A DNA stretch of 64,000 bases from positions 32,001-96,000 of the forward strand of contig CBDASK010000003.1 of NCBI GenBank assembly GCA_965199495.1, in the 5' to 3' direction. The notes under the pieces were generated by a model. It saw only the letters and a program-made list of their open reading frames with translations, ran no database searches and was not told the origin of the DNA. How positions within the stretch are numbered: position 1 is the first letter of the stretch; every line of letters begins with the position of its first letter. Below, piece by piece: positions 15,056 to 51,358 of the stretch. The position numbers and the translations under genes are program-made. The DNA comes from Abditibacterium sp. GTDB taxonomy: Bacteria; Armatimonadota; Abditibacteriia; Abditibacteriales; Abditibacteriaceae.

Positions 15056-15166
15056 AATAAGACGTTAGGAGTCAGAAGTGAGAAGCGGGGTTTTGCTACT
15101 TTGTGGCGTTCTTCACTTTCTAATTCTCGGATTCTCACTCCTGACTTCCAACTTCTAACTCTTAAC

Positions 15167-16276
15167 ATGAAATTCGACGTTTCTCTCGACATTCCCCGCC
15201 GTAAAACGCGCAAAATCAAAATTGGCAACATCTTCGTCGGCGGCGACGCGCCCATCGCGATTCAAACGATGGCCAAAACCAAAACCGATAACGTTCAAGC
15301 CACGATTGACCAAATCCACGCGATTCAGCAGGCGGGCGCCGACCTGGTGCGCGTGGCTGTGCCCGACGAAGCTTCGGCGCGTTCGCTGCACGACATCAAA
15401 GCCAACATCCAAATTCCGCTCGTCGCCGATATTCACTTCAACGCGAAATTCGCGATGATCGCGCTCGAACAGGGCGTTCACAAACTGCGCCTCAATCCCG
15501 GCAACATCCGCAACGAAGCCAAAATCCGCGACATCGTGCGCGCCGCCAAAGAGCGCAGCGTGCCAATCCGCATCGGCGTCAACGCCGGTTCGCTCGACCC
15601 GGATATTCGCGAACGTTACGGTAACACGCCGCGCGCTCTGGTTGAATCGGCCAAGCGCGAACTGTCGTATTTCGATAAAGAAGGTTTCGGCGATGTCATT
15701 ATCTCGATCAAAGCGTCGGACGTGCGCATGACGGTCGCCGCTTACACTCTGGCCGCCGAAGAATTGGACGATTATCCGTTGCATCTGGGCGTGACCGAAG
15801 CGGGCATTACGCGCATCGGAACGGTGAAAAGTGCGATGGGAATCGGCAATTTGCTGATGGCGGGCATCGGCGATACCCTGCGCGTTTCGTTGACCGGCGA
15901 TCCCGTTGACGAAGTCAAAATCGGCTGGGATATGTTGCAGGGTTTGGAACTGCGCCGTCGCGGGCCGAACGTGATTTCGTGTCCGAGTTGCGGGCGCTGC
16001 GATATTGACGTTGTGCCGCTGGCTATCGCGGTCAACGAAGCGATTGGCAGCATTTCGCAACCGATTTCGATTGCCGTGATGGGCTGCGAAGTCAACGGCC
16101 CCGGCGAAGCCAAAAGCGCCGACTACGGCGTGGCTGGTGGCAACGGCGTGAGTTTGATTTTCAAGAAAGGCCAAGTCGTAGCGCGCGCTTCGACCGAAAA
16201 TCAGTTGACGGCATTGATGGATGTCATCAACGAAGATTTGGCGAGCCAAGAACCTACGCTCGTTGAAGCGGAGTAA
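15167..16276 (+). CDS. ispG: HMBPP synthase IspG
   Basis: PLVADIHF, LRLNPGNI, RIGVNAGSL, PLHLGVTEAG, CPSCGR, VMGCEVNGPGEA. Confidence 0.97.
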   Translation: MKFDVSLDIPRRKTRKIKIGNIFVGGDAPIAIQTMAKTKTDNVQATIDQIHAIQQAGADLVRVAVPDEASARSLHDIKANIQIPLVADIHFNAKFAMIALEQGVHKLRLNPGNIRNEAKIRDIVRAAKERSVPIRIGVNAGSLDPDIRERYGNTPRALVESAKRELSYFDKEGFGDVIISIKASDVRMTVAAYTLAAEELDDYPLHLGVTEAGITRIGTVKSAMGIGNLLMAGIGDTLRVSLTGDPVDEVKIGWDMLQGLELRRRGPNVISCPSCGRCDIDVVPLAIAVNEAIGSISQPISIAVMGCEVNGPGEAKSADYGVAGGNGVSLIFKKGQVVARASTENQLTALMDVINEDLASQEPTLVEAE

Positions 16277-16302: not shown

Positions 16303-16935
16303 ATGGCAACGATGTTACAAACCGCGCCTCAAACAGAGAGCCGCCTGGCGACCGATGAGTTCGCGCAACGAGAACTCATCGGTGTCGAAATCTCCAATGG
16401 AAAGCCCAGAGAAAACCGAATAACGCCAGATGAGTTCATGCAACTCAAAATCGAAAACGCGGAATTAGTTGATGGCCAAATCATCGAAAAAATGCCCACA
16501 ATGTTCAGCCACGACAAGCTCGTTGGAATCATCTTCGCCTTGATATTCGCTTTTGTGAGAAAGCACAATTTAGGAGAAGTTGCTGCCGGTGGCTCTTTTA
16601 AAACGGGCGAAGATCAGGTTCGTGTGCCCGATGTCTCGTTCATTTCCAACCAAGACTTAGAAGGCGAAGATTTGGATTCTTACATTCAGAAGCCGCCGAC
16701 TTTGGCCGTTGAAATTATCTCGAAAAACGATACTTACGGCGACGTTGACGACAAAGCCGACGAGTTTTTGGCCGCAGGAACTCAAATGGTCTGGATCGTG
16801 AATCCGCGTCGCCGTACCGTGGCCGTTCACACGCCTGACGGCCTTCCGGTGGTTTATAACATCGGCGATACAATTCCCGGTGGCGCGGTTTTTCCCGGTT
16901 TCGAGTTGCCTGTCGCCGAAATCTTTGCAGATTAA
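16303..16935 (+). CDS. Uma2 (DUF820) family endonuclease-fold protein
   Basis: ELVDG, RVPDVSF, PTLAVEIIS, VWIVNP, PGFELPVAEIF. Confidence 0.9.
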   Translation: MATMLQTAPQTESRLATDEFAQRELIGVEISNGKPRENRITPDEFMQLKIENAELVDGQIIEKMPTMFSHDKLVGIIFALIFAFVRKHNLGEVAAGGSFKTGEDQVRVPDVSFISNQDLEGEDLDSYIQKPPTLAVEIISKNDTYGDVDDKADEFLAAGTQMVWIVNPRRRTVAVHTPDGLPVVYNIGDTIPGGAVFPGFELPVAEIFAD

Positions 16936-26638: not shown

Positions 26639-27925
26639 TCATGCGCTGACCGACGGCGAAGTTTCTACCGACGTTTGTGGCGACCAATTCAGCTTTTGCT
26701 CGGTATATTCGCGCGGCGACATCAGCGGCAATTGCAAGCACTCGCTGTTCATCGGCAACACATCGCGCCACTGCGAAATCAGCTTTTTGTAGGCTAAACC
26801 GACGGGACGAATATTGCGCTCCAAATCATAAAGTCCCAGCGGATTGATGTGGCCGTTTGGCTCGCGCAGCGCCGTGTCCCAGTCCACCTGATCGGTCAGC
26901 GAATACCACGTAAAACCGAGCATCGGGATGCCGTCGTTGCGCACGAGCAACACGTTGGCCCACTCTTTCCAAAGCCATTGCACGGCCTCGTCGCCGCGCG
27001 CTTCTTGCCAGTGATTGGTTTCGGTGTGCATCACCGGCAGATGATAGCGCCGAAAATACTGCCGCGTGATTTCGCTATAGCCAAAAATCTCGCCCGCCGC
27101 GCGCGTGGCTCCATCGGACGAGACCAAATGTTCGTTGGTCACGTAATAATCGTTGCCCATCACGCACGATTTTTTGACTTTGTTTTCCAGAAAAAAATGA
27201 TACTGCTCGCGCGTCATGCCGTTGTCCAGCAAAAACTCATACATTTCCGAATCCACACGACGCCCGTAGTTCAAGTCGAGCGACAAAAAGCGGCGCGCGT
27301 TGAGAATTTCGGCGGGTTTAATCGCGGCGGGCGAGTCGGCGTGAAAGTATTCCGACGATTCGCTCTGAATAAAAATCGCGTCGGGGCGCACTTCCAAAAT
27401 AGCGCGCATCGCCAAAACGTTGGCTTTGACGATATTATTAAGCGCCGTCACAAAAGCGCGGTCGCTGGCGAGTTGTTCGTTCCACCAACCGTAGGCCGCC
27501 GAAAACGTCGCGCACACGAACATCTCGTTGACCGGCGTGTAAAGTTGCACCCAGGGAAAACGTTTGGCGAAATCGCGCGCGTAAGTCGCGAAGAGTTCGG
27601 GCAAATCGGGGTTTTGAAAATCGCCGACCCAATCGGGAATTCCGAAGTGACACAAATCAACAATCGGCACGATGTCGCGCTTTTTCAAATCGTTAAACGT
27701 TTCGTCAGCGAAATCCCAATTGTAGCCACCATCATGCAGCCACGTCGTGTGGATTGGCGGGCCGTAGCGTAGAAATTGGATTCCCAATTCTTGCACCAAA
27801 TCGAAATCGGTGCGCCAATGCGTATAATGGCCGCATTTTTCCATTTCGTCCACGCGCAATTTGCCATTACGTATCGTCGGATTGGAATTTTCGATGCCGG
27901 TCGCAAACATGAAATTTGAGTTCAT
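26639..27925 (-). CDS. Glycoside hydrolase family 1 (beta-glucosidase-like)
   Basis: FMFATGIENS, DLCHFG, YTPVNE, MHTETN, FTWYSLTDQVDW; start set at MNSNF. Confidence 0.88.
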   Translation of the reverse strand: MNSNFMFATGIENSNPTIRNGKLRVDEMEKCGHYTHWRTDFDLVQELGIQFLRYGPPIHTTWLHDGGYNWDFADETFNDLKKRDIVPIVDLCHFGIPDWVGDFQNPDLPELFATYARDFAKRFPWVQLYTPVNEMFVCATFSAAYGWWNEQLASDRAFVTALNNIVKANVLAMRAILEVRPDAIFIQSESSEYFHADSPAAIKPAEILNARRFLSLDLNYGRRVDSEMYEFLLDNGMTREQYHFFLENKVKKSCVMGNDYYVTNEHLVSSDGATRAAGEIFGYSEITRQYFRRYHLPVMHTETNHWQEARGDEAVQWLWKEWANVLLVRNDGIPMLGFTWYSLTDQVDWDTALREPNGHINPLGLYDLERNIRPVGLAYKKLISQWRDVLPMNSECLQLPLMSPREYTEQKLNWSPQTSVETSPSVSA

Positions 27926-28078
27926 TGGTAATTTGCGTGGAATGCAAGATGCGTGCGAAGTTTGCGCATTTTCTCTCAACCGCCATAAACCTATCCGACA
28001 TCTGAAATCCGCCATCCAATTATCCGACGCTGTTTTCACTCGTTTCAAAAAAAACTTTGAAAATTTGTCTAAAAGGGG

Positions 28079-28107
28079 TTGACACGCCCATAAAACTGCC
28101 ATAAAAT
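28079..28107 (+). promoter_or_regulatory. sigma70-type promoter upstream of the retron-like RNA and PARP
   Basis: TTGACA (28079-28084), 17 nt spacer, TAAAAT (28102-28107); predicted start ~28113-28115 coincides with the 5' end of the terminal inverted repeat. Confidence 0.8.
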
Positions 28108-28114
28108 TTCCGGT

Positions 28115-28405
28115 GAATTGGTGAGTTGCGCGTTTCGGCAATTTCGCTTGGTGCGAAGCTCCGGTGTTCCGCCGGAGACGATTCTTACTTCCCCAACGCT
28201 GCGCTTGCAGCACGGGACGCCGCTGTGTTTTCACCCGGTCGCGGGTGCCCCGGCCCCCTGAGATTTAATTATTCGCACACGAGAGCTTACGTTCCGTGCT
28301 GTGCGACCAATTAAATCTCAGGGGGCCGGGGCACCCGCGACCGGGTTACAGTGACCGGCGCCCGTCAAAAGAGAGTTCATGCGAAAGGCGCAACTCGCCC
28401 AATTC
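28115..28405 (+). ncRNA. Putative retron msr-msd non-coding RNA
   Basis: Terminal imperfect inverted repeat GAATTGGTGAGTTGCGCGTTTCGGCA (28115-28140) / TGCGAAAGGCGCAACTCGCCCAATTC (28380-28405); three short hairpins (28143-28157, 28159-28177, 28198-28211); long hairpin 28212-28365 with a 38-bp perfect core; retron RT downstream on the same strand. Confidence 0.7.
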
Positions 28406-28501
28406 TTCATCTTTCGATGGACATTTACAACTGCATAAACTGACAGCTTTCAACCGCGAGATATTTTTCCTCAACCCACTTTGCCGCGCCTGGAGCCACT
28501 C

Positions 28502-29815
28502 ATGTCAAACATCATCAAAAGTGCCCGACTCATTTTCGTGTCGGTGAGCAACAACAACAACAAGTTTTATTACATCGACCTTTTCGATAACGATCAAGTC
28601 CAAATTCGTTACGGTCGCTACATCGAAGAAAACGGCGAACTCAAAGTTCAATCCGACACCACAACGCCCGGCGGCGAAAGTTTATTCCAGCGCAAACTGC
28701 GCGAAAAAACGGGCAAAGGTTACAAGCCGCAACCCGTTTTAGAAGACAATTCGTCTTCGCCGAGCGCGTCCCAGAAAAACGCCGGATTGGAAGAGATCGC
28801 GTTATCGCAAATTCGCACCAAGTCCGACGAAGTGCGCGCGCTGATTTCCTATCTTTGCAACATCAATATCCACAACATCGTGGAAAACTCGGCGATTAAA
28901 TACAACAAAGACACCGGTTTATTCTCGACGCCCTCCGGTCTCATCACCGTTGACGGCATTCGCGATGGGCGCGAACTGTTGTCGCAAATCAAAACCAAGA
29001 TTGACGCCGGAAAGTGGGACGCCCATTACATCCAGTTGCTCGATCAATATCTGACGATTGTGCCGCGCGACTTCGGGCGCAAACGGCCCGACCCGCAAGA
29101 ACTCTTCCCCGACGACGCCGAAATTCAGAAACAAGCGGGCATTTTGGATTCGCTCGAAGCCAGTCTGACTTCCTACGCCGAGAAGAAAGCCAAAGGCGAA
29201 TACGACATCAAAGAAGACGACGCGCCGCCGCCCCCGCCGCCGCAACTCTTTGATACTGCCGTCGAGTTGTTAACCGACCAAGCCGAATTCAATCGCATCA
29301 AAGAACATTTCGAGAAGTCGGCCAAAACCGAACACCAATCCATTAAGCATCTGACGTTGAAGCGCGTTTACACCGTCGAAATCGCCAAAATGAAGCGCGA
29401 ATACGACGAGCGCGGTGCGAGCAAAGGCAACGTGCATCGTTTGTGGCACGGCACTTCGGCGGCCAATGTTTTGTCAATTTTCAAGAGCGGTTTCATGCTG
29501 ACGCCGCCATCGAGCGCGCATATCGCGGGCAAAGCGTTTGGCAACGGCTTGTATTTCGCGCCCGCCTCGACCAAAAGTTTGCAGTACGCCGGTGGTTTTT
29601 GGGGCGGTAAGCAGGGCAAAAAGACGTATATGTTTTTGAACGACATCGCCGTCGGCAAAGCGTTCGAGCCGAAGACGACGACAAGCCAAAATCCGCCTGC
29701 GGGCTACGATTCGTATTGGGCGCGCGCGGGCAAAGCCGGTTGGCTAATTAACGATGAAGTCATCGTGTTCGATGCGGCTCAGGTCAATCCGGTTTATCTG
29801 CTGGAATTTGAGTAG
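28502..29815 (+). CDS. Poly(ADP-ribose) polymerase-like protein: WGR + regulatory (helical) + catalytic domains
   Basis: WGR-like NNNKFYYIDL..RYGR..KTGKGY; YLTIVPRDFG; PARP signature LWHGT..FGNGLYFA..STKSLQY; NDEVIVF; H316/Y351/E419 triad numbered from ATG 28502. Confidence 0.92.
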   Translation: MSNIIKSARLIFVSVSNNNNKFYYIDLFDNDQVQIRYGRYIEENGELKVQSDTTTPGGESLFQRKLREKTGKGYKPQPVLEDNSSSPSASQKNAGLEEIALSQIRTKSDEVRALISYLCNINIHNIVENSAIKYNKDTGLFSTPSGLITVDGIRDGRELLSQIKTKIDAGKWDAHYIQLLDQYLTIVPRDFGRKRPDPQELFPDDAEIQKQAGILDSLEASLTSYAEKKAKGEYDIKEDDAPPPPPPQLFDTAVELLTDQAEFNRIKEHFEKSAKTEHQSIKHLTLKRVYTVEIAKMKREYDERGASKGNVHRLWHGTSAANVLSIFKSGFMLTPPSSAHIAGKAFGNGLYFAPASTKSLQYAGGFWGGKQGKKTYMFLNDIAVGKAFEPKTTTSQNPPAGYDSYWARAGKAGWLINDEVIVFDAAQVNPVYLLEFE

Positions 29816-29891
29816 TAATTTTGAAATAGGACGCAATGACGAACGTGGGGCTAAAACCGCGCGCGTTTCGGATGGTCAGAAAAAATCACTC

Positions 29892-30446
29892 ATGAAAACC
29901 ACAATTTCCCTTGTCTGCGCCCTCGTTACTTGCATCGGCACCGGCGCTTTTGCGCAAAACACGACCAAACCCGCGCCCGCCGCGCAAATTTTGGCCTCGG
30001 CGCAAAAACGAGCGGCCAAAGAAAAAAAAGCCGTTTTCGTCGTTTTTCATGCTTCGTGGTGCGGTTGGTGTCACCGGCTCGAAGATTCGATGAACAAACC
30101 GCCGTTCAAAAAATTGTTCGCCGATAATTATGTCATCGTTTCGCTCGATGTCAGGGAACACGGCGACAAGAAAGTTTTGGAAAACCCCGGCGCCGACAAA
30201 GTAATGGCCGATTTGGGCGGCACCGATGCTGGCTTGCCGTTTTATGCGTTCACCGACGCGCGCGGCACGCGTCTGGCGAGCAGTCTGGCGCTGCCTGCGT
30301 CGGGTGGAAAAATGGCGAATATCGGCTATCCAACGACGCCCGCAGAAATCGCGGCTTTCGACAGTCTGTTGCGCAAAACCGCGCCGAAAATGAACGCCAA
30401 AGCGCGCCAATCTTATCTCGATTATTTGAAATCCCCCGCAAAGTAG
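29892..30446 (+). CDS. Exported thioredoxin-family protein
   Basis: Signal peptide, FHASWCGWC, GLPF cis-Pro loop. Confidence 0.85.
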   Translation: MKTTISLVCALVTCIGTGAFAQNTTKPAPAAQILASAQKRAAKEKKAVFVVFHASWCGWCHRLEDSMNKPPFKKLFADNYVIVSLDVREHGDKKVLENPGADKVMADLGGTDAGLPFYAFTDARGTRLASSLALPASGGKMANIGYPTTPAEIAAFDSLLRKTAPKMNAKARQSYLDYLKSPAK

Positions 30447-30481
30447 CCCCGCTCGCCCCTATTCGCGTTGGCCGTTTGGAG

Positions 30482-30638
30482 ACTTAGAAGCTATCCCAAC
30501 AGGGAAAGAAACTTGAAAGAGGCGGGGCTGACGCACCTTTCCAATCTGGCGTAAGTCCGAGGAAATTCCGCCGATTGGAAGGGTGCGTCAGCCCCGCCTC
30601 TTTCAAGTTTCTTTCCCTGTTGGGATAAGCACTTAGAA
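30482..30638. mobile_element. MITE-like palindromic element flanked by 8-bp direct repeats
   Basis: 55-bp arms 30492-30546 / 30573-30627 (one mismatch); ACTTAGAA at 30482-30489 and 30631-30638; core GGGGCTGACGC also occurs at 48032-48323. Confidence 0.65.
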
Positions 30639-30866
30639 TGAATTCGATAATTTCTCATCAAGCGTTTCAATCGAGCGCACTTTCTTTGATGCGATCAGAA
30701 AATTGGCGGGAATTTGTCCGCGACAATTAGCCATTGACCGCCGAGTTGTCGCCAGTCCAAACGACGTTGTGCCACGTAACCGGGCGCCCGACTGGTCAGG
30801 GCCAAAGGCCGCGTAGAGTTTGTTGGGCGGCGCAGCGTTAGCGTTCTATTTCTCAATTATACCCAC

Positions 30867-33800
30867 ATGAATCCACAAATTCCCATCGAAGCGCGCCAGA
30901 CCGTTTTAGATTTCATTACGGCAGGCACGTCGTTTACCGCCTACGAAGTCACGCTCGAAGTGCGGCGCCGCCTCGGAACTTCGATTGACGTGCCGCACGG
31001 CGTCGTCAATACCATCGTGCAAAATATGTTTGCGCGCGGCGATCTTATGGGCTACGACCGGCGACCCGACCAGACCGTGCAATCCGCCACGCCGCCGTTT
31101 CGTTATTATCAGCGCGGCGGCGCCGTGGCTGCTCCGTTCGTGACGCCGACTGCTCCCGCGATTTCGCGTTCGGGTTTGCCGCCCGCGCTGCGGTTTTCCG
31201 TGCCATTGAGCGCGATGATGCGCAACTTGGGCGTCGCCGCGCGCGATTTTCAGCGCGCGCACGGCAAGGCCAGCGAACCTTTTGCGGTCTGGTTGCCCAC
31301 GCTCAAAGAGCCGACGTTTCGCTTGCGTTGCTATGGCGCGGGCTGGGACGAAAGCGAGGTCGAACGGCGTTTTGCGCTCAATTTAAATAATCCCGGCGCC
31401 GCAGAGATGATCTGGCTTTCGCCGCTCGCTTATGCCGACGAATTTCGACTTTATTCCAACTTGAGCGGCACGCAAACCCAGTTCTTGATCAAAATGGACG
31501 CGGCGTTGCAAACGACCATAGCCAAAGAAGCCGAGCGGAAAACGGGCGAGCCGGACGGATTGGAAATCGAAGTCGCGATTCGCAATCGCGACCTTGATTC
31601 CGGCGAACGCGCGCAGAAAATTTATCGTTATCTGAGCGTGCCGCCGCGCATCTATCGTAATGGAGTGGCTTTGACGATTGTGCCGTCGAAAGTGATTTCG
31701 CAGGGCGACGGTTGGAAACTGACCGATAACAAAGAACTACTGGCAATCGTTGATGAGGTCGCCTATTCGCTGTTGGGACTGGAAGCGGTTGCGGGATTGG
31801 GGGTCAAGTTATATCTGGAAAACGTGGATGTCGAGCCGTCGCTGGAGAAGTTGGAGCAAACCGACCGCACGCGCGACGAGCGCAAGCGCGTCATCGAAAA
31901 TTTCAAACGCGAAATCGCCGCGCCGATTAATCAACAATTTGCGGGCGCGGCGAATTTGTGGGAAGCCAAAATTTTGTGGCGCGAGATTTTCGGCGCCGCC
32001 AGCCCCAACGCGATGCAGAAAGTGTTGGGCAACGCCGTTTCGTGGCGCGGCATCGCCGTCGAAAGCGCCGATTTCCAATGGCACAACGCGCCCGCAGACG
32101 TAAAAATCCGAGGCTATCGTCCGTCTTCAAAGCCGACAAAAACAGTGGATTCGTGGGTTGCTTATGTGCTTCCGGCCCATTCCGAAACTCTGGTTTTCAT
32201 CAACGATCTGGGCTGGGACAAAAGCGCGACCTCGCGCATTGCCGAACTTCAACGTACGTCGCCGTTCACCACCGCGTTCGTTCTGAATTTCGCGGACGAC
32301 GCCGCGCGCGCCACGTTTTTCCGCGAACAAAATTTCGAGACCGTTCCGACGCGTTTGATTTCCGAACTGCCCAAACCGGCGCGCGCCATCGGCACGCCGC
32401 ACGTCAGCAACCGCACAGCGTTCGATGCGCAATTGCATCAAATCCAGGCGCCATCGGGCGGTGTGGCGGCGTCGTTCGCTGCGGGCGATGACGGTTCGGA
32501 TGCCGACTTTGAGAATCTGAAAATTTGGGCGCGCGCCGCGCCGCTCGACGCGAAAAATTGGCCCGATTTCAAGCGATTGTATAAAGCCATCGAAGCGCGG
32601 TTGTGGCCGCCGATGGGCCGTTTTCGTTGGGACGCAACCGAAGCCGATTTCGCCGCGACGCCGATTCCGAGTGAGCGAGATTTGGAATTGTTGGGCGTTT
32701 TGATGGGCCGCTTGGACGAACACAACGCGCAACGCGGCGCGGGCCAACCCGTCGCGCCGCAACCGACGATTGCGCAATGGGCTTTGAGTGCCGTTAGCAA
32801 TTTAGTCGGTCGCCCCAATGCAGCCACGGCGAGCGGGCCAAGCGCCAACACGCTTGCTTATATGAAGCGGCGCGCGACGAAATTATTGACATTTTTGCGC
32901 GGTAACCAAGATTTGTCCGAGCGACGCCGCCATGCGCTCGCGCCTTTGGTTTGTGGCCTATTGCAACGCGATAAATGTCTGGATATTTCGGAGACTTTGG
33001 TGGGGCGTTTGAAGTTGGGCGAAACCGAGGTTTTGGCCGCTCATCCCGCAGCGATTGCGCGCGTGTGGGCGAATATAACGGTGCCATTGACCATCGCGCG
33101 TTGGTCTTACGATTGGCTGGAAGAACACCAACAAATTATCGAGGTTTCGCCAGTGCAGTTGCGACGCTTTGTCGAGTTGCCCGATGTGAATTGGACGCTG
33201 AAACTCGCGCCCGCCGCGTTGCAAAAAGATCAGATTTGGCCGCGCGATTTTGGTTTGCGAGATTTTTCGCGCGTCTTGCAGGGCAACGCGCAAAATATGA
33301 CGAACGGCGTTTGGGTCAACACGCAATTTTTGCAGCGACGCGACGAAATCGTGAATTTATTCGCGCGTTTCCCGCAACTCGAACTTGACAAACGTTGGTT
33401 GCGCGATTCGATTTCGCAGGTCAGTGACGAAATCACGCTCGATTGGCTGGCGCCGTGGCTGAACGAGTGGGCGCGCGACGGCGAGTTTTCGCTGATCGAA
33501 AAAATGTCGCCCGACCTGCAAAATCGCTTCAACACGGCAATTGTCGCGGTTTTTTCGCAGGGATTATCGCTGGAAAAATGGCGAGAACTCACGAACGCGC
33601 CGGAATTGTTGCCATTGCTGGCGCCCGCGCTCCAACAAATGTCGATTTCGAGTAAAATCGCCGATTATATTTGGTCGTTGCCCGCCGACAAACGCGATCC
33701 GATTTTGAGAGCATTGGAAGAGAATCCGGCGTTGTTACCGATCATCGAAGACCACGCGCGCCGTTTGGATTGGGCGTTCATCGCGCCACTTTCAGCAGTG

Positions 33801-34736
33801 CAATGGGAATGTTTCGCGCGGACAGTGTCCGCGACTTTTCCCGACGGAATTAGCGCCGACGATTGGGCGCAAATCGCCGAATTACCGTTTGAAGCGGGCC
33901 ACAAATTTTTGCCATTGGGCACCGGATTCTGGCAGTTTGTTTTGCCGCTTGAAAGCGAAAATCGCGCGCGGTGGATCGCGCGCGTCGGAGCAGAGCGCGC
34001 GAGTCGCGAGTTCGCCAGCCAAAGCGCGGCGATTTTCGAGGAATTGCTCGATTCGGATGAGACGGGTTTGGACGAATTGGGCGACGCGTGGCTCGATGCA
34101 CAGTTGTCGCAAATCGCGTTTGATAGCGAACTCATCATTAAATTGGCGCAAAGCAACGTTTCGGATTGGCAAGCGCGCGCGTTGTCGCATTTGCGTTCCG
34201 CCGAACTGCGCTTGCCGGTGGCTCTTCGTCTGATGGAAAGCGAACTGCCGATTTTGGAGCGTGTGGCCGCGCCGTTTTTCTCGGACGAAAACAAGAACTG
34301 GAGCGAGCGTGTTCTGGCGCTCGCCGATTCGCCGAAAATAGCGGCGCGCGCCCTCGCATTGCAATTGTTGGAAGAATTTCCCCGGCGTTGGACGCCCGAT
34401 TTGTTGCGCCAGTTGGCGCAGCACGATGACGCGGGCATTCAAGCGTTTGTCGCGGCGCAATTGAAAAATGCGCCCGCTAAAGTCGTCGAATCCAAGGCGA
34501 TTGAAACGTTCGATAGCGCGATAATTAACGCGCGCGGGCGAGGGCGACGGGCCAAAGAAAGCGTGAAAGCGCGCGCGGGTAAGTTTGACCGCGAAACGTT
34601 GCTCGAAGCCGCGCGCAACGGCGCGCCGCGCGACCGCGAATGGGCACTGCGACAATTGGTTCTGGCGTCATTGGCGGGCGAGAACGTCGAAGGATTAGAT
34701 GTCGCGGGCGCGTTTGCGAAGGCGGATTCGCGATAG
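30867..34736 (+). CDS. Large retron-associated protein: small N-terminal domain, degenerate rIIA-like GHKL domain, ARM/HEAT-like helical C-terminal half
   Basis: 1289 aa ORF; PFAVWLPTLKEPTFRLRCYGAG..SPLAYADEF..TGEPDGLEIEV resembles phage rIIA-type HATPase; NTLAYMKRRA and repeated L-x-x-L-x-[DE]-S helical units; upstream of SWIM and RT genes. Domain calls by eye. Confidence 0.72.
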   Translation: MNPQIPIEARQTVLDFITAGTSFTAYEVTLEVRRRLGTSIDVPHGVVNTIVQNMFARGDLMGYDRRPDQTVQSATPPFRYYQRGGAVAAPFVTPTAPAISRSGLPPALRFSVPLSAMMRNLGVAARDFQRAHGKASEPFAVWLPTLKEPTFRLRCYGAGWDESEVERRFALNLNNPGAAEMIWLSPLAYADEFRLYSNLSGTQTQFLIKMDAALQTTIAKEAERKTGEPDGLEIEVAIRNRDLDSGERAQKIYRYLSVPPRIYRNGVALTIVPSKVISQGDGWKLTDNKELLAIVDEVAYSLLGLEAVAGLGVKLYLENVDVEPSLEKLEQTDRTRDERKRVIENFKREIAAPINQQFAGAANLWEAKILWREIFGAASPNAMQKVLGNAVSWRGIAVESADFQWHNAPADVKIRGYRPSSKPTKTVDSWVAYVLPAHSETLVFINDLGWDKSATSRIAELQRTSPFTTAFVLNFADDAARATFFREQNFETVPTRLISELPKPARAIGTPHVSNRTAFDAQLHQIQAPSGGVAASFAAGDDGSDADFENLKIWARAAPLDAKNWPDFKRLYKAIEARLWPPMGRFRWDATEADFAATPIPSERDLELLGVLMGRLDEHNAQRGAGQPVAPQPTIAQWALSAVSNLVGRPNAATASGPSANTLAYMKRRATKLLTFLRGNQDLSERRRHALAPLVCGLLQRDKCLDISETLVGRLKLGETEVLAAHPAAIARVWANITVPLTIARWSYDWLEEHQQIIEVSPVQLRRFVELPDVNWTLKLAPAALQKDQIWPRDFGLRDFSRVLQGNAQNMTNGVWVNTQFLQRRDEIVNLFARFPQLELDKRWLRDSISQVSDEITLDWLAPWLNEWARDGEFSLIEKMSPDLQNRFNTAIVAVFSQGLSLEKWRELTNAPELLPLLAPALQQMSISSKIADYIWSLPADKRDPILRALEENPALLPIIEDHARRLDWAFIAPLSAVQWECFARTVSATFPDGISADDWAQIAELPFEAGHKFLPLGTGFWQFVLPLESENRARWIARVGAERASREFASQSAAIFEELLDSDETGLDELGDAWLDAQLSQIAFDSELIIKLAQSNVSDWQARALSHLRSAELRLPVALRLMESELPILERVAAPFFSDENKNWSERVLALADSPKIAARALALQLLEEFPRRWTPDLLRQLAQHDDAGIQAFVAAQLKNAPAKVVESKAIETFDSAIINARGRGRRAKESVKARAGKFDRETLLEAARNGAPRDREWALRQLVLASLAGENVEGLDVAGAFAKADSR

Positions 34737-34973
34737 GTTTCGGAACTGGCATTGAACCATGAAGCGCCTCTGACTCACACCCCCTCTGACTTCGTCATCT
34801 CCCCCTCCGAGAGGGGAAGAATGCCTCATTAGGGTGAAGAGCTTACCTGGTAAATACGAAGCGGCGAAAGTTAATTCGGCATTCTTCCCCTCTCGGAGGG
34901 GGAGATGACGAAGTCAGAGGGGGTGTGAGTCAGAGGCGCTTCATGGTTCAATGCCAGTTCCGAAACCTATCGC
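34730..34973. repeat. Palindromic element with 96-bp perfect arms
   Basis: 34730-34825 is the reverse complement of 34878-34973; REP-like core CCCCCTCTGACTTCGTCATCTCCCCCTCC. Confidence 0.9.
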
Positions 34974-34987
34974 CAGGAAAATTTATC

Positions 34988-36703
34988 ATGGAAATCACAC
35001 AATCTTACGCCACGCCTTCGACCGCGCAGCCACGCGGCGACGGTCTGGGTTTTTCGCTTTCGACCGAGGCCGCGCGGCCCGGCGTGCATCTCGAAGCTCT
35101 GGTCAAAAAATCGCGTTCCTACGGGCGCGTGATGCTCGCTTTACACCGCGTCGTTGCGGGCGACGCGCGTTTTCAAGAAGCCGATCATTCGGCCTATCAA
35201 GCGTGGGTGCGCGGCCAATATCTGCTCGAATTGGCGCAAGACCAGAAGCAATTGCAACAGAAATTGCCCGCGTTACAGCAGGAATTGGACGAGATTAAAA
35301 CGCAATTGCAACCGCTCGACACGCGCTCAAACGAACTTTATCTGGAACTGCAAAAGTTGGGGCGCGAGGGCAGCAAATCGTTTTACGAGGCTCAGCGCAA
35401 CTACTGGCAATATCTCTATCGCGCCGATAAAGCGTTATGGTGGGTTTTGGATCCGGTGGTTTCGGTTCATCCCGACGCCACGCTTTTCGAGGTGTTTTCG
35501 CGCGACGAATCGAGTTACGGTTGCGTGCGCGTGCCGACCAAAAATCTCGATGTTGTGGGCGACGTGGCTTATGGCACGACGAACGTGGATTATTCGCAAG
35601 CGTTGGCCAACGAAATGGCGCGCGTGCGCGATTACAGACGCGCATGGTTGGGCGTTGGACAAACGGGCATCAGCGTGGCGACGACGGCGGGCGCGCGCGT
35701 TGAAAAGAAGATTGATTTGCCGCCTTCTTGGGTGCGCGGCTTTTTGCAAGTCCAAAGCGCGAGCGCGTTGGCGACGATAAATTTGTCATTGTCGGCCACC
35801 GTCGTCGCCGAAATTTTGCGAGTGTTGAATGCACGCCGCGAAGACAAAGGCCCGCGCTCGCTGAAATTCGATTTAAAACCGGGGCAGTTGCCGACAATCG
35901 AAATCGAACCGTGGGGCGAAATCGTGCGCGAAACGCAGTTTAAATATGCGGGAAAAACCGCGCAAACCGTGCGGATTTGGGGACGGCGGCGCTTATCGGT
36001 TTTGAGCGAAATGTTGCCGCACGCGCGCGAAGTCGAGGTGCGCTTGCTGGGCGACGGCTTGCCGTCGTTCTGGGCGTTGGAACTCGAAGGCCATCGTTTC
36101 GAGCTGGGTTTGTCGGGCTGGACGACCAACGATTGGAGCGCCGCCGCGCGTTTCGATGCGCTCGCTTCGAGCAGCCACGTCGGCGACGAACTGTTGAAGA
36201 CGGCGGCGCGCGAGTTAGAAAAGGCGCTGATTTTGACGCCGGTTCAACTCGCCGAAATCACCGATTCCAATCGCGCACAGGCGACGAGTGCATTGCAAAA
36301 GCTATGCAGTCAGGGCCGCGCGATGTGGGATTCGGTGATTAAATCGTATCGCTGGCGGCAACTGTTGCCGTTCGCGGCGCCCGAAACGCCGCTCGATACC
36401 AAAGCGAAATCGGCGGTGCGTTGGGTTGAAGGCGGCAAAGTGAAAGTCGCTAAAGTTGACGATAAAGAAATCGAAAAAGACGATTTCTTGAAGCGTTACA
36501 ACGCGCCCGATGTTCAGTTTTGGGCGGCGGAAGTGAACTCGGAAGGCGGCCAGTTTAATCCGTTGTGGGCCAGCGACGCCGATGGTCGCGTGAAATTTTG
36601 GCAATGCACCTGCGGCGAGTTTCGCCGCGACAAAGGGCGCGGCGGGCCGTGCGCGCATTTGCTGGCGGGCTTGGGACAGGTCGAAGCGGAGGGAAAACGA
36701 TGA
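34988..36703 (+). CDS. SWIM zinc-finger protein (retron type XIII-associated family)
   Basis: LDPVVSVHPD..FEVFSRDESSYG, LPPSWVRGFLQVQ, WGRRRL, LGLSGWTTNDW, YRWR; C-terminal CTC-x12-CAH; AGGA RBS before ATG 34988. Confidence 0.85.
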   Translation: MEITQSYATPSTAQPRGDGLGFSLSTEAARPGVHLEALVKKSRSYGRVMLALHRVVAGDARFQEADHSAYQAWVRGQYLLELAQDQKQLQQKLPALQQELDEIKTQLQPLDTRSNELYLELQKLGREGSKSFYEAQRNYWQYLYRADKALWWVLDPVVSVHPDATLFEVFSRDESSYGCVRVPTKNLDVVGDVAYGTTNVDYSQALANEMARVRDYRRAWLGVGQTGISVATTAGARVEKKIDLPPSWVRGFLQVQSASALATINLSLSATVVAEILRVLNARREDKGPRSLKFDLKPGQLPTIEIEPWGEIVRETQFKYAGKTAQTVRIWGRRRLSVLSEMLPHAREVEVRLLGDGLPSFWALELEGHRFELGLSGWTTNDWSAAARFDALASSSHVGDELLKTAARELEKALILTPVQLAEITDSNRAQATSALQKLCSQGRAMWDSVIKSYRWRQLLPFAAPETPLDTKAKSAVRWVEGGKVKVAKVDDKEIEKDDFLKRYNAPDVQFWAAEVNSEGGQFNPLWASDADGRVKFWQCTCGEFRRDKGRGGPCAHLLAGLGQVEAEGKR

Positions 36704-38133
36704 GCGATTGGCGCAAACAAATCAAAGAACTGGGCAAACGCGAGTTTCAGCGGCGCGAAATGGAACGGTTGGGTTTCTGGCCGCCGCCCGCGCAGGGTTC
36801 CGACCAAGCGCGCGATGTGCAAAGCCAATTGAGCGCGCTCAACGTCGAAATGCGCGCCGTGGCTGATCGTAGTCGGCCCCTGCGATTGCGCGAAAATCAA
36901 ATCGAAAAAGAATTGTCCGAAGCGGGCAATCTCGAAGCGCAACTCGCCGAAATTCGGCGGCGCCGCATCGAACGCGTTAAAGCCGCGCGATTGGAAAAAC
37001 GCGCGCGCCGCGAACGCGAAACCGTCGAAAAACGCGCGCGCGACCAGCAATGGCGCGCCGAGAATCTGCCGTTTTTAGGACGCGGCGTCTCCAAACGCCT
37101 GAACTTTGCCGAGCCGTCCGACGCCACGAAACTGGGCGAAATCGGATTGCCGGTTTTGAACAATCCCGCCGACGTGGCTGCTCTGTTGGAAATCACGATT
37201 CCGCAGTTGGCGTGGCTCTGCTATCATCGCGAGGCGGCGCCGATTGACCATTATTCGCGCTTCACGATTCCAAAACGCAACGGCGGATTGCGCGCGATTT
37301 CGGCGCCGCGACCGTATTTAAAAGCGGCGCAAACGCGCATTTTGCGCGCGATTTTGGAACTCGTGCCGCTTCACGAGGCGGCGATGGCGTTTCGGCCCGC
37401 GCGCAATATCGGCGATAATGCGATGATTCATTCGCACGCGCAAAGCGGCGGGCCAGCCGTTATTTTGCGCGTGGATTTGAAAGATTTCTTTCCGTCTATC
37501 ACTTTCAAACGCATCGCCGGAGTTTTCGCGCAATTGGGCTATAACGGCGGCGTTGCGACATTGCTCGCGCTGATTTGCACCGAACCGCCGCGCGTCGCGG
37601 CGACGCTCGACGGACAGACCAGCCACGTCGCGTTGGGCGCGCGCTTTGTGCCGCAGGGCGCGCCGACTTCGCCCGCCTTGACCAATATTTTGTGCCGCCG
37701 ATTAGATTCGCGATTGAGCGGTATGGCGCGCGCCTACAATTTTAATTACACGCGCTACGCCGACGATTTGGTGTTTTCTTCGACCAAAGGCGCCGATGCG
37801 ATTCATCTAAAAAATGGCGTGATGCAAATTTTGGAAGACGAAAATCTTGCCGTCAATCCCGATAAAATTGATTTCGCGCGGCGCGGCCAACGCCAGAGCG
37901 TGACAGGTTTAGTCGTCAACGGTGAGCGTGGCCCGCGCCCGTCGCGGCGCGATTTGCGGCGGTTTCGCGCCGTCATGCACGATATTGGGTGCAATGGCGC
38001 CGATGCGGTTTCCGAGAAAATGGGTCAGAGCGCGCTGTGTTGGGCGCGCGGTTATCTGGCGTTCGTGCAGGGGTGCGCGCCCGAAATCGCGAGCGGTTTG
38101 CGCGAAAAATACGCGAGTGTTTTGACGGTATAA
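36700..38133 (+). CDS. Retron-type reverse transcriptase, Mx162/Mx65-like, with basic N-terminal extension
   Basis: IPKRNGGLRAISAP, region X NAMIH (37417-37431), DLKDFFPSI, PQGAPTSPALTN, YTRYADDLVFS (YADD 37756-37767), region Y VTGLVVN (37900); ATGA overlap with SWIM gene; GGAGG RBS. Confidence 0.95.
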   Translation: MSDWRKQIKELGKREFQRREMERLGFWPPPAQGSDQARDVQSQLSALNVEMRAVADRSRPLRLRENQIEKELSEAGNLEAQLAEIRRRRIERVKAARLEKRARRERETVEKRARDQQWRAENLPFLGRGVSKRLNFAEPSDATKLGEIGLPVLNNPADVAALLEITIPQLAWLCYHREAAPIDHYSRFTIPKRNGGLRAISAPRPYLKAAQTRILRAILELVPLHEAAMAFRPARNIGDNAMIHSHAQSGGPAVILRVDLKDFFPSITFKRIAGVFAQLGYNGGVATLLALICTEPPRVAATLDGQTSHVALGARFVPQGAPTSPALTNILCRRLDSRLSGMARAYNFNYTRYADDLVFSSTKGADAIHLKNGVMQILEDENLAVNPDKIDFARRGQRQSVTGLVVNGERGPRPSRRDLRRFRAVMHDIGCNGADAVSEKMGQSALCWARGYLAFVQGCAPEIASGLREKYASVLTV

Positions 38134-38141
38134 TCTTTTCT

Positions 38142-39356
38142 ATGAAATTCACGGTTTTCATCGCCAGCATTTTGGCGTTCGCCGCTCCCATTGCTCACGC
38201 GCAGGATGCGTCTAACGTCAACGGCTATAGCGCGTTAGTTGAGGCCGGAAAACTCATCATGCCCGATGCCAGAGACGAAATGCGCGACCTCGTGCCGCCC
38301 GCCGAAAATCTGGCGCGCCAAAGGGCATCGGTTGAGCGCAATGCAATCGCGTTGGTTTTAGCGCGCGAGGCGTTGGCGCAACCAATTACGATCCCTGCGC
38401 CTGAAAGTCCGCAGAATATCAGCGCAGAAAGTCTCATAGATTTTCAAAAGTTAGCGCGCCAATTTCTCGCGGAATCAGACGTGCGCTTGGCCAATAGTGA
38501 CGCGGCGGGCGCGCTCGATTCGCGTTTGACGATGCTGCAACTCGGTCGTGCCACCGCGCATGATGCGCCTTACACTCACACGCTGGTTGGCCTGAGCATC
38601 GAAGGCATGGCGCGCAAAAACATCGAGTTCGTCGCGGCCCGGTTGGATGCGCCGCAAATTCGCGCGGCGCTGATTCGATTGGATTCGATCAACGCACAAA
38701 GCACAAATTTAGTCGCCGTTCTAAGAGTCGAGAAACCGTCAACGCTACGAGCCGTCGGCGCGGCGTTATCCGCCGTCACGCCGCAAGACTTGAACAAATC
38801 AAAGGCCATACTCGCGACACCCGAAGGCCGCCGTGAAGCCGGGCTTTCGGACGAAGAGGCCAAACTTTCCGTCGAGTTGTTAGAAATGAACGCGGAATTG
38901 GTCAAAGCGAAAATTGGCGAGGCCTTCGATTTTTATATCGCGCGCGCAGACTTACCCTATCAACAATCGCTTTCCAATTTCCCCAACCCCAACCCAGCGA
39001 CTGACGTGTTTTCAGACAAATTTAAAGATCCGCTAATACGCTTTGTTTTTGAGCGCAATCGCGTTAACAATGATTGGCTACGCGCCGCGCTCGAACTGCG
39101 CGCCATCCAACTGGAAACCGGCCAATATCCAGCGAGTTACGACGCCGGAACCGATCCGTTTTCTTTCCCCACTGCGTCCTACATTTACCGGCGTGAAGCC
39201 GACAAATATCTGCTTTATAGCGTCGGGCCTGACGGCAAAGACGAGGGCGGCGCCGAAATTCAGACGCTGCAAACCAACTCGCAAACCGGAGTCAATAGCG
39301 TCAATAGCGTTTTGAACACCAACTCGCTCGGTGACATCGTTGCCCCAATATTTTAG
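38142..39356 (+). CDS. Exported hypothetical protein with C-terminal LYSVGPDGxD motif
   Basis: Signal peptide ending AHA-Q; DPFS..YIYR..LYSVGPDGKDEGG. Confidence 0.75.
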   Translation: MKFTVFIASILAFAAPIAHAQDASNVNGYSALVEAGKLIMPDARDEMRDLVPPAENLARQRASVERNAIALVLAREALAQPITIPAPESPQNISAESLIDFQKLARQFLAESDVRLANSDAAGALDSRLTMLQLGRATAHDAPYTHTLVGLSIEGMARKNIEFVAARLDAPQIRAALIRLDSINAQSTNLVAVLRVEKPSTLRAVGAALSAVTPQDLNKSKAILATPEGRREAGLSDEEAKLSVELLEMNAELVKAKIGEAFDFYIARADLPYQQSLSNFPNPNPATDVFSDKFKDPLIRFVFERNRVNNDWLRAALELRAIQLETGQYPASYDAGTDPFSFPTASYIYRREADKYLLYSVGPDGKDEGGAEIQTLQTNSQTGVNSVNSVLNTNSLGDIVAPIF

Positions 39357-39363
39357 CACGATA

Positions 39364-41421
39364 TTATCCGCCGACGTGAACGCGCGGACGCCGCGCCGGA
39401 TCAGGTTCGGCTTCGCGCAAAACTTCGTGGGTGACGGGCGGCACGTCGCCCTGACCGAAGACGATGTAGTTGAAGATGTAAACCAGCGGATTGCCTTCCG
39501 TCCACGCGAAATAAACGTGGGGAATGACGCCGGTTTCGTCGCGAATGCGCAGCATCAAAGCGGCGATGGCGTTGGGCACCGTCGTGGCGTAAACGCGCAA
39601 AATTTGAAAGCCGTGACGTTCTTCGCCGCGCACGTTGATGGCGCCCGAAAAGTTGGAGGCGTCCACAACCGTCACTTCGAGAAAGATAATCGGGTCGCCT
39701 TCGGGAATGTGATTGTTCTCACGCTTTTCCAATTCTTTCTCGCGATATTCGGCTTCGTCGCGCGCGCCGGGATGGTTGGCGACGATGCGGATGTGGCCAC
39801 GCGCAGCCTGCTCGATAATTTCCTGCGCTTTAGTATCAATGTTGAACTCTTCGGCGCGCAGTTCGGTGGTGCGATAAACGCGCGATAACAGCGACAACGC
39901 TACGATGCCCGCGATGAAAATCAAGGCGATTTTCAGGCCGCCCGGATCGTCGCGGATGGTGACGGCGGTGGTATAAACGAAAATCGCGCACACGATGCCA
40001 AAACCAATCATCATTTTGGTCTGGCCCGCGCGTTTGGCGCTCATCGTCACGGCGACGGTGGCTGATGTCATCAACGCCAAAACGCCCGTCGCGTAGGCTC
40101 CGGCCTGCGCCTCGACATCGGCGTGAAAGGCGATGGTCACCAGAAAACAGATGCCGGTAAATATCAGCGTGAGCGGGCGCGTGGCGCGCATCCATTCGGG
40201 CGCCATGCCATAGCGCGGCAGATAGCGCGGCATGATGTTCAAAAGCCCGGCCATCGCCGAGGCGCCCGCGAACCACAAAATGCAGATCGTCGAGATGTCG
40301 TAGGCGGTACCGAAACCGTCGCCGAAAATATCGTGCGCCATGAACGCGAGCGCGCGCCCATACGCTTTGCCCGCTGGTTGCGCGGGCACGGCTTCCTGCG
40401 ACTGAATTTCGGGAGTGGTTTCGGTGCGCTCTTGAAATTCGATGGCGGGTTGCGCGAGTTGAGGCGCCTCAAACTCGGCGGGCGGCACGTAAAGCGTGGT
40501 GACGATCGCCGACAAAATCAGCATCACCGACATGATGCAGGCCGCCAACGTCAGTAGTTTGCGCGCGTTGCGAATGCGGCCCGTCGGCTTGTTTTCGTTG
40601 TCGTCGGGATCGCCCTGAATCAATGGCATCACCACGACGCCGGTTTCAAAGCCCGAAAGCCCCAACGCCAAACGCGGAAAAACCAAAAGCGAGGCGCCAA
40701 ACATCGCCAGATAGCCGGAATGTTCGGTAAAAAGTCGCGCTTTCCAACTGGAAATCAGCGCCGGATGATGGACGATCTGCAAGAAGCCACCGCCAATCAC
40801 CACCAAGTTCATCAGGATGAAAACGATGACCAAGGCGACCGCAATGCCGATGGCTTCGCCGAAACCTTTCAAGAAAACCGCGCCCAGCAAACTAATAAGA
40901 AACAGCGTAATCAACACGTTTTCGCCGTGCAGAAACGCGGGCGCGAACGGATTCTCGACGACGTGCGCCGCCGCGTCCGCCGCCGACAAAGTGATGGTAA
41001 TAATGAAACCGGTCGCCGCGAAACCGATGAGGGCCAGCACGAACATTTTGCCCTGCCACCATTTCAGCACGGTTTCGAGCATCGAAATCGAGCCGTCGCC
41101 GTGCGGCGATTCGTAGGCCACGCGCCGATACATCGGGAGCGCGCCGAACAGCGTCAAAATCACCAGAATCAGCGTGGCAAACGGCGCGAGAGCGCCCGCC
41201 GCCAGCGCCGCAATGCCCGGCTGATAACCCAATGTAGAAAAATAATCCACGCCCGTCAGGCACATCACTTTCCACCACGCGTGCGTATGTTCGACTTTGG
41301 ATTCGGAAATGCCGGGGCCTTCGTGCGTGCCGTCAACACGATGAGAGCGAGGGCCATCGGGCGAATCGTGTTGCGCGCTGGGCGAATCGGCTTGCAGTAA
41401 CCACTTACTAAATGCGGACAT
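39364..41421 (-). CDS. APC superfamily (amino acid/cation) transporter, paralog 1
   Basis: [35 protein letters not shown]; ~12 TM helices. Confidence 0.88.
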
Positions 41422-51173: not shown

Positions 51174-51199
51174 TGCTTCTAAGGATACAAACGTTCTTG

Positions 51200-51353: not shown

Positions 51354-51358
51354 TTTTT

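Follow-up and report, generated by a model that had tools for sequence, protein, structure and literature searches.

Why does the gene for a poly(ADP-ribose) polymerase (PARP) stand inside a retron operon, and is it a working part of that retron or a passenger? The question is raised by a locus of Abditibacterium sp. (phylum Armatimonadota) at positions 28079-38133 of the DNA stretch analysed here, which is 64,000 nucleotides long (contig CBDASK010000003.1 of assembly GCA_965199495.1, positions 32,001 to 96,000) and is called the window below. On the + strand the locus contains, in order, a promoter, an RNA gene of ~295 nt, the PARP gene, a thioredoxin-like open reading frame (ORF), and the genes for a 1289-aa scaffold protein, a SWIM protein and a reverse transcriptase (RT). 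From its sequences we assign the locus to the type XIII (Mx162-family) retrons, of which it is an undescribed form. We favour, with a probability of roughly 0.55, the reading that it is a genus-specific derivative of this type, in which the WGR-PARP is a working component integrated as a gated effector; the effector role, the gating by multicopy single-stranded DNA (msDNA) along with the depletion of NAD+ are purely what we infer for such a component. The parts of the system, numbered by window position, are the following.

28034..28059, + strand: conserved upstream element, TTTCA-N5-TTTCA and an A-run, directly 5' of the -35 box; near-identical by eye in 6/6 PARP-type loci
28079..28107, + strand: sigma-70-type promoter of the retron RNA, TTGACA-17-TAAAAT, 11/12 consensus positions
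28113..28406 (approximate), + strand: retron noncoding RNA (ncRNA; msr-msd), from fold, covariation and shared flank motifs
~28113-28137, + strand: arm a1, pairing with a2 at ~28382-28406
28159-28177 and 28198-28211, + strand: two small msr hairpins, 3' of a1
28212..28365, + strand: msd stem-loop, its lower stem conserved and its upper stem (28229-28350) hypervariable
28502..29815, + strand: PARP of 437 aa with WGR domain, helical domain (HD; PARP_reg) and PARP catalytic domain, by Pfam
30867..34736, + strand: scaffold protein of 1289 aa, with winged helix (1-86), rIIA-like GHKL and transducer region (~97-405), linker, and type XIII HEAT/ARM body (~550/603-1289)
34988..36703, + strand: SWIM zinc-finger protein of type XIII retrons, 571 aa, by PADLOC and Pfam; most likely start ATG 34988
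36700..38133, + strand: retron RT, 477 aa, by PADLOC, Pfam and motifs; most likely start ATG 36700

The promoter is the top-scoring site within 27500-39500, where the number of promoter-like sites, nine, is within chance (shuffled mean 5.5 +/- 2.1). TTG(A/C) and (A/T)AAAT-like boxes recur by eye at constant spacing in six PARP-type loci, and the element at 28034-28059 is possibly an UP element or a regulator site. The original prediction had described five co-oriented genes behind one strong promoter and a retron-shaped RNA; the promoter, the RNA and four of the genes are borne out, and the fifth, the thioredoxin-like gene, is a private insertion of this genome. Without its insertions the cassette measures ~8.5 kb. 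In the interval from the ncRNA to the PARP start (28450-28500), the sequences CAACCGCGAGA and GCCGCGCCTGGAGC are kept in all six PARP-type loci.

Type XIII is defined, in the available part of Mestre 2020 (PMC7736814), by an RT of clade 10, a SWIM-finger protein that is usually preceded by a HEAT/ARM protein, and a distinctive ncRNA; the SWIM protein is predicted there to be nuclease- or transposase-derived. The window RT matches the PADLOC model RT_XIII at 2e-139 (463.7 bits), with RT_other as the next model at 2.1e-87, and Pfam RVT_1 at 1.9e-25. Its translation shows NAMIH, YADD and SVTG, which correspond to the retron RT motifs NAxxH, YADD and VTG. The start codon at 36700 overlaps the SWIM stop as ATGA and lies 3' of GGAGGG. 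The SWIM protein matches PADLOC SWIM_XIII at 2.2e-157 over profile positions 1-498 of 509 and Pfam SWIM at 3.1e-4 (555-581); it also has 571 aa in the orthologs, and is ~90 aa shorter than its canonical relatives of 646-687 aa. These matches uphold three earlier claims, namely an Mx162-like RT of type XIII, its YADD, NAxxH and VTG motifs, and the SWIM finger.

The phylum was sampled with 401 genomes, taking PARP homologs at E <= 1e-10 and RT_XIII matches at E <= 1e-60. In an IQ-TREE tree of 33 RTs, the window RT groups with 26 other RT_XIII matches of the phylum, and the seven linked to a PARP make up a single clade (support 100/100, stem of 0.58 substitutions per site), which branches among RTs of the same family and stands apart from the canonical paralogs in the same genomes. 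By this clade, the PARP-linked cassette is of single origin. The canonical loci of Armatimonadota have the order scaffold-SWIM-RT in 24/26 cases, the other two being cut by contig ends, and in 17 of the 21 for which upstream sequence exists, an msd hairpin stands directly 5' of the scaffold gene, framed by conserved flanks (…TTTC(A/G)C… hairpin …TACAGTG…). This indicates that the ancestral layout was ncRNA-scaffold-SWIM-RT and that the PARP gene was placed between the RNA and scaffold genes in the present lineage.

The scaffold joins a type XIII body to a different N-terminal half. Alignment of six orthologs with 12 canonical scaffolds by hhalign gave a probability of 100 (E 2.4e-47) over residues 603-1265, and the C-terminal part of the PADLOC profile WGR_XIII matches the protein at 3.5e-8. 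Canonical scaffolds of the phylum carry LVIVD propeller repeats at the N-terminus; the PARP-type scaffold has ~550 new residues instead. An AF2 model of residues 1-620 (17-row alignment, mean pLDDT 83) contains a winged helix at 1-86 (Z 6-8), and Foldseek related the model to TRAP1/Hsp90 (E 2e-13). For residues ~97-405, VIA returned Z values of 13-15.6 across Hsp90, TopoVI-B, MORC, MutL and GyrB-type chains (15.6 for GRP94, 15.1 for TopoVI-B, 14.1 for MORC3, 13.9 for MutL). In the predicted structure this region has a GHKL ATPase and transducer fold. PHROG 612, “RIIA lysis inhibitor”, matches residues 185-463 (E 5.8e-18), which together with the hhalign result agrees with the designation rIIA/ARM protein in the original prediction.

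Whether this fold binds ATP is uncertain: the ATP-binding boxes read, by eye, RN..AARD and RCYGAG, with no evident Asp of the DxGxG box. The Pfam HATPase models have no match in the scaffold, a PDB sequence-profile search with it gave 0 matches, and an ESM Atlas look-up returned unnamed clusters and weak HATPase_c_3 leads (0.89-0.91). The family comprises 17 clusters among 5.8 billion proteins, 16 of them of 1197-1318 aa and one of 795 aa. Neither Pfam nor PADLOC detects a WGR domain in the 1289-aa protein, which thus does not have the form of cluster 216_1; scaffold clusters that lack WGR exist in type XIII according to the text at hand of Mestre 2020 (PMC7736814), and a missing WGR does not exclude the type. 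The idea that a WGR domain moved from the scaffold to the PARP is unsupported for this lineage, since the canonical scaffolds of the phylum have no N-terminal WGR match.

A retron RT primes from the 2'-OH of a G beside the a1/a2 stem and copies the msd region into a single-stranded DNA hairpin that stays linked to the RNA. The RNA upstream of the PARP gene is retron-shaped. The segment 28110-28410 folds with a minimum free energy of -191.7 kcal/mol (z = -12.94; 0/100 shuffles as stable), and the same RNA, which is present in a single copy in the genome, precedes the PARP gene in five further genomes. In the six-genome alignment, 95.2% of cells pair, as against 72.6 +/- 1.4% after shuffling (0/500 shuffles reach the observed value) and 37-43% in slid-partner controls. 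Both sides have changed, in a compensatory manner, in 58/100 pairs of the whole structure, in 12/19 pairs of the a1/a2 helix, and in 40/46 pairs of the variable upper msd stem (helix 5), where 96.7% of cells pair. An invariant GGCA at 28137-28140 directly follows the last a1/a2 pair, and its G at 28137 or 28138 is, from its position only, the candidate priming residue; the predicted msDNA from this template would be ~170 nt. An Rfam scan of the RNA found no retron family and gave six sub-threshold matches to miRNA precursors, set off by the long hairpins; the paralogous canonical locus likewise gave no retron family.

Compared with the canonical loci of the phylum, the ncRNA has flank motifs near-identical to those of canonical type XIII loci of the same taxonomic family. 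The distance between these conserved motifs across the msd is identical in 6/6 PARP-type loci (130 nt motif to motif in five of them; 132 nt by a second measure for G000, the window genome, and G125). By that second measure it is 103-104 nt in 11/11 canonical copies from eight loci of the family, so that the PARP-type hairpin is exactly 28 nt longer, its stem being extended by 14 bp. The stem sequences themselves are almost wholly turned over between loci. That the stem is exactly 14 bp longer and fixed in length speaks for protein partners that measure the msDNA, and for a change in the set of these partners. At the msd apex (28262-28312), a motif …CACGA.AGCTTAC…CGTGCTGT… is kept, by eye, in 4/6 genomes, and G084 has its core in reverse orientation (GTAAGCT).

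The window genome also carries a second type XIII retron, of canonical form, ~1.55 Mb away (L004, G000:C3:1610000-1629999, positions 8096-16170, minus strand). It encodes an RT, a SWIM protein of 662 aa and a scaffold of 1181 aa that contains LVIVD repeats, lacks a PARP gene, and is preceded by two tandem ncRNA copies (~16170-15950 and ~15850-15670) that share their flanks and differ in their msd stems. Tandem ncRNA pairs are also present in the loci L050, L125 and L150. The last of these, a canonical type XIII retron on a metagenome contig (2670-12078), encodes an 896-aa SWIM protein with inserted Malectin and WGR domains; directly 5' of its tandem ncRNAs, and after a recombinase-like gene, lies a co-oriented gene for a protein with WGR and ATP-dependent DNA ligase domains.

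The WGR domain of PARP1-3 binds to DNA breaks and lifts the autoinhibition exerted by the helical domain. The window PARP has the same domains: Pfam finds PARP (6.1e-24), WGR (9e-10) and PARP_reg (2.3e-7), all above cut-offs, and the protein aligns with the WGR-HD-CAT chains of PARP2 and PARP1 at E 1e-19 (PARP2 chain 6usj_U over residues 13-389). The WGR motif itself reads YGR and is accompanied by a short insertion. Residues H316, Y351 and E419, assigned to the H-Y-E triad by the motifs LWHGT, GxGxYFA and NDE, are unchanged in 8/8 aligned PARPs (6/6 in a second alignment). The ratio of nonsynonymous to synonymous substitution (dN/dS) of the PARP is 0.04-0.11, which denotes strong purifying selection, against 0.05-0.20 for SWIM, 0.06-0.21 for RT and 0.12-0.35 for the scaffold; many pairs are near synonymous saturation, and in the two least saturated and most reliable ones (G000-G125 and G084-G197) the PARP has the lowest value of the four genes. 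By its invariant triad and low dN/dS, the PARP is probably functional. An intact catalytic triad and a WGR domain seated on the PARP had both been claimed at the outset, and both are found, the domain by a Pfam match on the PARP itself.

Full-length WGR-HD-PARP homologs of the same length, at 33-36% identity, occur in Klebsiella phages (137-147 kb) and in Xanthomonas/Stenotrophomonas phages (309-385 kb), and PHROG 23333 matches the window PARP at 3e-46. Some 4 Mb from the PARP gene, at G000:C3:4086611-4088556, the genome carries a gene for a bacterial-type PARG (PF10021, 2.6e-46) beside a macro-domain gene. A complex prediction for the PARP with scaffold residues 1-560 scored 0.00 and weighs neither way on binding.

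Does the PARP resemble a retron component in its sequence? The WGR part of the PADLOC profile WGR_XIII is matched by 6/6 retron-linked PARPs (E 3e-6 to 3e-3) and, at E <= 1, by 0/10 unlinked PARPs, which include five Armatimonadota PARPs at 37-44% identity. This split, and the coincidence of the PARP capture with the exchange of the scaffold N-terminus, the shorter SWIM protein and the 28-nt extension of the msd, a pattern of “co-remodelling”, speak for integration of the PARP into the retron.

Conservation within the genus leads in the same direction. Thirteen genomes were compared, counting G000; several are only 79-89% complete. PARP sequence is present in 8/13, and the arrangement ncRNA-PARP-scaffold-SWIM-RT in 7/13 (G000, G125, G161, G197, G084, G072, and G179 as far as its contig reaches). 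In all seven genomes with a whole PARP, the gene lies 5.6-7 kb from an RT_XIII gene on the same strand; each PARP-bearing genome, the window genome included, has one PARP only. In the related loci the gaps are 60-259 nt between PARP and scaffold and 24-27 nt between scaffold and SWIM (four loci), and SWIM and RT overlap. Identity to the window proteins is 72-92% for PARP, 67-84% for SWIM, 63-80% for RT and 37-60% for the scaffold. There are at least two chromosomal contexts: G072, G084, G161 and G197 share both flanks, and G000 and G125 differ from them. The cassette is also found in AP024152.1, the complete genome of a named isolate. The eighth genome, G134, holds a relic (L152, G134:C7:11000-30999, at 9832-10199) of ~75 nt of msr followed ~50 nt on by PARP residues 53-133, with no msd hairpin, scaffold, SWIM or RT. 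Neither PARP nor PARP-type RT was found in the remaining five genomes, two of which carry only the canonical retron. Among the genomes of this set, the PARP-type RT never occurs without PARP, nor a whole PARP without that RT. The cassette is conserved and, in this genus comparison, is gained or lost as a unit.

These data bear on the possibility that the PARP is a passenger, that is, a solitary DNA-damage PARP of Armatimonadota that lodged between the RNA and scaffold genes in the ancestor of the genus and was kept by descent on a strong promoter, functionally unconnected to the retron. A mere passenger would sit uneasily with the mutual occurrence of PARP and PARP-type RT, with the decay of the PARP along with the rest in the single decayed locus (G134), and with the intact cassette in two genomic contexts. 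The insertion of the PARP gene further coincides with a long RT stem branch, a new scaffold N-terminus and a longer msd of fixed length, and the retron WGR profile is matched by linked PARPs only. The passenger explanation draws on other facts: the PARP-retron link is limited to one genus, the thioredoxin-like insertion shows that unrelated genes can lodge in the operon, the presence of PARG is independent of PARP, and PARPs stand alone among unrelated neighbours in other Armatimonadota, Blastocatellia, Gemmataceae, Variovorax and a Pseudomonas plasmid. On balance we think it unlikely that the PARP is a passenger.

The situation outside the genus was surveyed in several ways. Within the phylum sample, a PARP homolog is found in 35/401 genomes and RT_XIII in 63/401; in the 16 genomes outside the genus that have both, the two lie on different contigs or >0.6 Mb apart. 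Co-occurrence at the level of the phylum (RT_XIII in 23/35 PARP genomes vs 40/366 others) is discounted, since the two genes cluster in the same few families. A PARP alignment scan over one genome per species (185,579 species; flanks up to 10 kb) returned 71 loci, among which RT, SWIM and scaffold genes lie near PARP in four Abditibacterium-type loci only; a fifth Abditibacterium locus ends inside PARP. Matches of ~70 aa to the SWIM finger (41-47% identity to the C-terminus of the canonical SWIM protein) occur in L109 (Archangium sp., ~16438-16644) and L121 (Archaeoglobales, ~2412-2621), with no RT nearby. Nine non-genus PARP loci, for which 35 neighbour proteins were scanned, show no recurrent partner. 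In metagenomes, a single-protein scan found no relative, and an alignment scan gave six distant PARP/WGR loci and no PARP-type cassette. Linkage of the PARP to the RT/SWIM/ARM module in other genomes had been set beforehand as the comparison that should tell; the linkage holds within the genus (seven genomes) and fails outside it (0/66 loci).

In the window genome the operon contains three further elements.

29893..30446, + strand: thioredoxin-like gene with a signal-peptide-like hydrophobic N-terminus (ORF 29754-30446, probable start 29893); Pfam Thioredoxin_7, 6.6e-13
30488..30628, no strand assigned: long palindrome of 141 nt, REP/MITE-like dispersed repeat, 77 genome matches (both strands counted)
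34737..34975, no strand assigned: second long palindrome of 239 nt, REP/MITE-like, in the scaffold-SWIM gap and private to this genome, 34 genome matches

The thioredoxin-like gene, which lies between the PARP and scaffold genes, has no counterpart in six related loci. The hairpin at 30488-30628 was considered as a second or rival msd and ruled out as a dispersed palindromic repeat by its 77 matches; the one at 34737-34975 was likewise rejected as a part of the retron, being a copy of a dispersed repeat with 34 matches. A further copy of this second palindrome family stands beside the paralogous RT (C3:1617876-1618055). An ORF at 37989-39356 (+ strand), which overlaps the end of the RT gene, has no family match and no counterpart in the related loci. 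Farther out, SbcC/SbcD-like genes (48384-52555, minus strand) adjoin mutL (52585-54483), and genes for Uma2-family putative endonucleases lie at 16303-16935 (E 1e-30) and 55564-56268 (E 7e-35). PADLOC gave no matches among the flanking genes tested.

Several of these observations weigh against an integrated effector. Retron genes are carried within the flanks by 0/66 of the non-Abditibacterium PARP loci (of 71), and the PARPs outside the genus, at 25-44% identity, are solitary, with varied neighbours. The positive cases all come from one genus and are dependent through kinship, so that seven genomes amount to about two or three independent observations; with the link limited to one genus, much of the conservation can be put down to shared descent. 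The relic is a single case. The scores of the linked PARPs against WGR_XIII are weak (14-24 bits), though the split is clean. The canonical scaffolds and systems of Armatimonadota have no detectable WGR, yet are taken to work. The operon of the window genome has taken up a thioredoxin-like gene and two palindromes, which implies that tight co-transcription is not essential or that the system is starting to decay. The surroundings are of a housekeeping kind (isoprenoid genes, MacAB-type efflux, SbcCD-like genes, MutL) and form no defence island. Finally, PARG is present in 10/13 genomes of the genus, among them G096 and G213, where no PARP was detected, and does not track the cassette.

If the PARP is nevertheless an integrated effector, its action might proceed as follows. 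From the msd stem-loop the RT would make a hairpin msDNA, linked to the RNA and seated on a complex of scaffold, SWIM protein and RT. The PARP would sense this msDNA, or DNA ends derived from it, through its WGR domain. As long as the 2',5' branch caps the 5' end of the msDNA, the helical domain would keep the PARP shut, with the msDNA as a silent or inhibitory ligand. Infection or damage might then cut, debranch or displace the msDNA, or bring in foreign DNA ends, and WGR binding would open the helical domain. The open PARP would consume NAD+ and ADP-ribosylate itself or other targets, and the outcome may be abortive infection or a signal to the SWIM/DEDE protein. Some restraint seems needed in any case, because the PARP gene comes first behind a strong promoter and its product should be abundant.

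A bolder form of this mechanism regards the msDNA as a caged ligand of the PARP, a hairpin of fixed length with a masked 5' end whose uncapping, cutting or displacement would set off poly-ADP-ribosylation and NAD+ consumption; WGR domains on scaffold, SWIM protein or PARP would then be the msDNA readers of type XIII. We advance it tentatively, as a possible but rather doubtful extension.

A different role is conceivable for a PARP that is integrated and does not kill. It could be a sensor or regulator that modifies the RT, the scaffold, the SWIM protein or the msDNA ends, or the whole system could serve DNA-damage or genome-maintenance signalling, with the SWIM/DEDE protein as output. Such a role would fit the housekeeping neighbours, including the SbcCD-like genes and MutL, the grouping of the RT tree by taxonomic family, and the PARG and macro-domain genes of the genome, which would permit reversible signalling. 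The WGR-DNA ligase neighbour and the WGR within the SWIM protein in L150 tie the family to DNA-end biology. A correlation of type XIII with host 16S, together with its possible vertical inheritance and domestication, is reported in Mestre 2020 (PMC7736814), and a nuclease or transposase origin of the SWIM protein is predicted there. A maintenance function is harder to reconcile with the patchy distribution in the genus (seven whole, one relic, five not found; several genomes 79-89% complete) and with the fast evolution of the scaffold (dN/dS up to 0.35; 37-60% identity), both of which are like those of a conflict system. A regulatory or maintenance role is, in our estimate, improbable.

Type XIII is among the commonest retron types (143/1,286 candidates in a 2026 survey, and 63/401 genomes of the phylum), and the literature searched yielded no measured function, effector or phage-defence experiment for it. 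A putatively DNA-activated PARP encoded right behind the template of a small DNA makes a concrete pair of ligand and enzyme, and hints at the role of the WGR domains that recur in type XIII. If msDNA gates the PARP, the system would amount to a naturally occurring ADP-ribosylation switch that is programmed by DNA, and would parallel, in evolutionary terms, the sensing of DNA by eukaryotic PARPs; should the msDNA be a caged ligand, type XIII would be a DNA-end signalling machine, and this would be the first physiological role for bacterial PARPs. A full-text literature search, with subscription journals and supplements outside it, found no paper that pairs a PARP with a retron, nor, among the papers listed and judged by title or abstract, a relevant one on rIIA in retrons; the terms PARP, WGR and ADP-ribos have 0 occurrences in the 2026 retron survey, as have retron and reverse transcriptase in the available text of two papers on bacterial PARPs (PMC8120803 and PMC5966428). 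This agrees with the original prediction, whose author knew of no PARP described as a retron effector.

How, then, does the locus compare with known systems? It resembles the type XIII retrons of RT clade 10 (Mxa1/Mx162, Mxa2/Mx65, Sau1/Sa163 and Nex2/Ne144, in the portion available of Mestre 2020, PMC7736814) in its RT_XIII RT, its SWIM partner, the HEAT/ARM body of the scaffold, the ncRNA with a1/a2 arms and one long msd hairpin, and the order RNA-scaffold-SWIM-RT. It differs from them in the WGR-HD-PARP gene added between the RNA and scaffold genes, in a scaffold N-terminus made of a winged helix and an rIIA-like GHKL region (an LVIVD propeller in the local canonical form, WGR-like in cluster 216_1), in a SWIM protein shorter by ~90 aa, in an msd longer by 28 nt, and in the long separate branch of the RT. 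The likeness to T4 rIIA-like GHKL proteins lies in the match of scaffold residues 185-463 to PHROG 612 and in the predicted GHKL ATPase and transducer fold; here this fold is fused to a retron HEAT/ARM scaffold, and the Asp of DxGxG is not evident.

The PARP shares the WGR, helical and catalytic domains and the H-Y-E triad with HaPARP of Herpetosiphon aurantiacus and CdPARP of Clostridioides difficile. In contrast to the window PARP, which lies inside a retron operon, these are encoded by stand-alone genes (PMC8120803, PMC5966428). HaPARP needs DNA for its activity, and the WGR domain serves this DNA-dependent activation, as the review PMC8120803 states in its available portion. For NAD+-using retron effectors, the precedent is RcaT of other retrons, described in the available text of a preprint (bioRxiv 10.64898/2026.10.13.758329) as NAD+-using and auto-ADP-ribosylating, held by RT-msDNA and freed when the msDNA is altered. 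By analogy, both precedents may be counted in favour of a gated effector. Compared with the RcaT-type effectors of Retron-Sen2 and Retron-Eco1, the present system differs in fold (PARP/diphtheria-toxin-like), in retron type (XIII) and in partners; what the two would have in common, on the side of the PARP by inference only, is an NAD+-using, ADP-ribosylating effector under the restraint of RT-msDNA.

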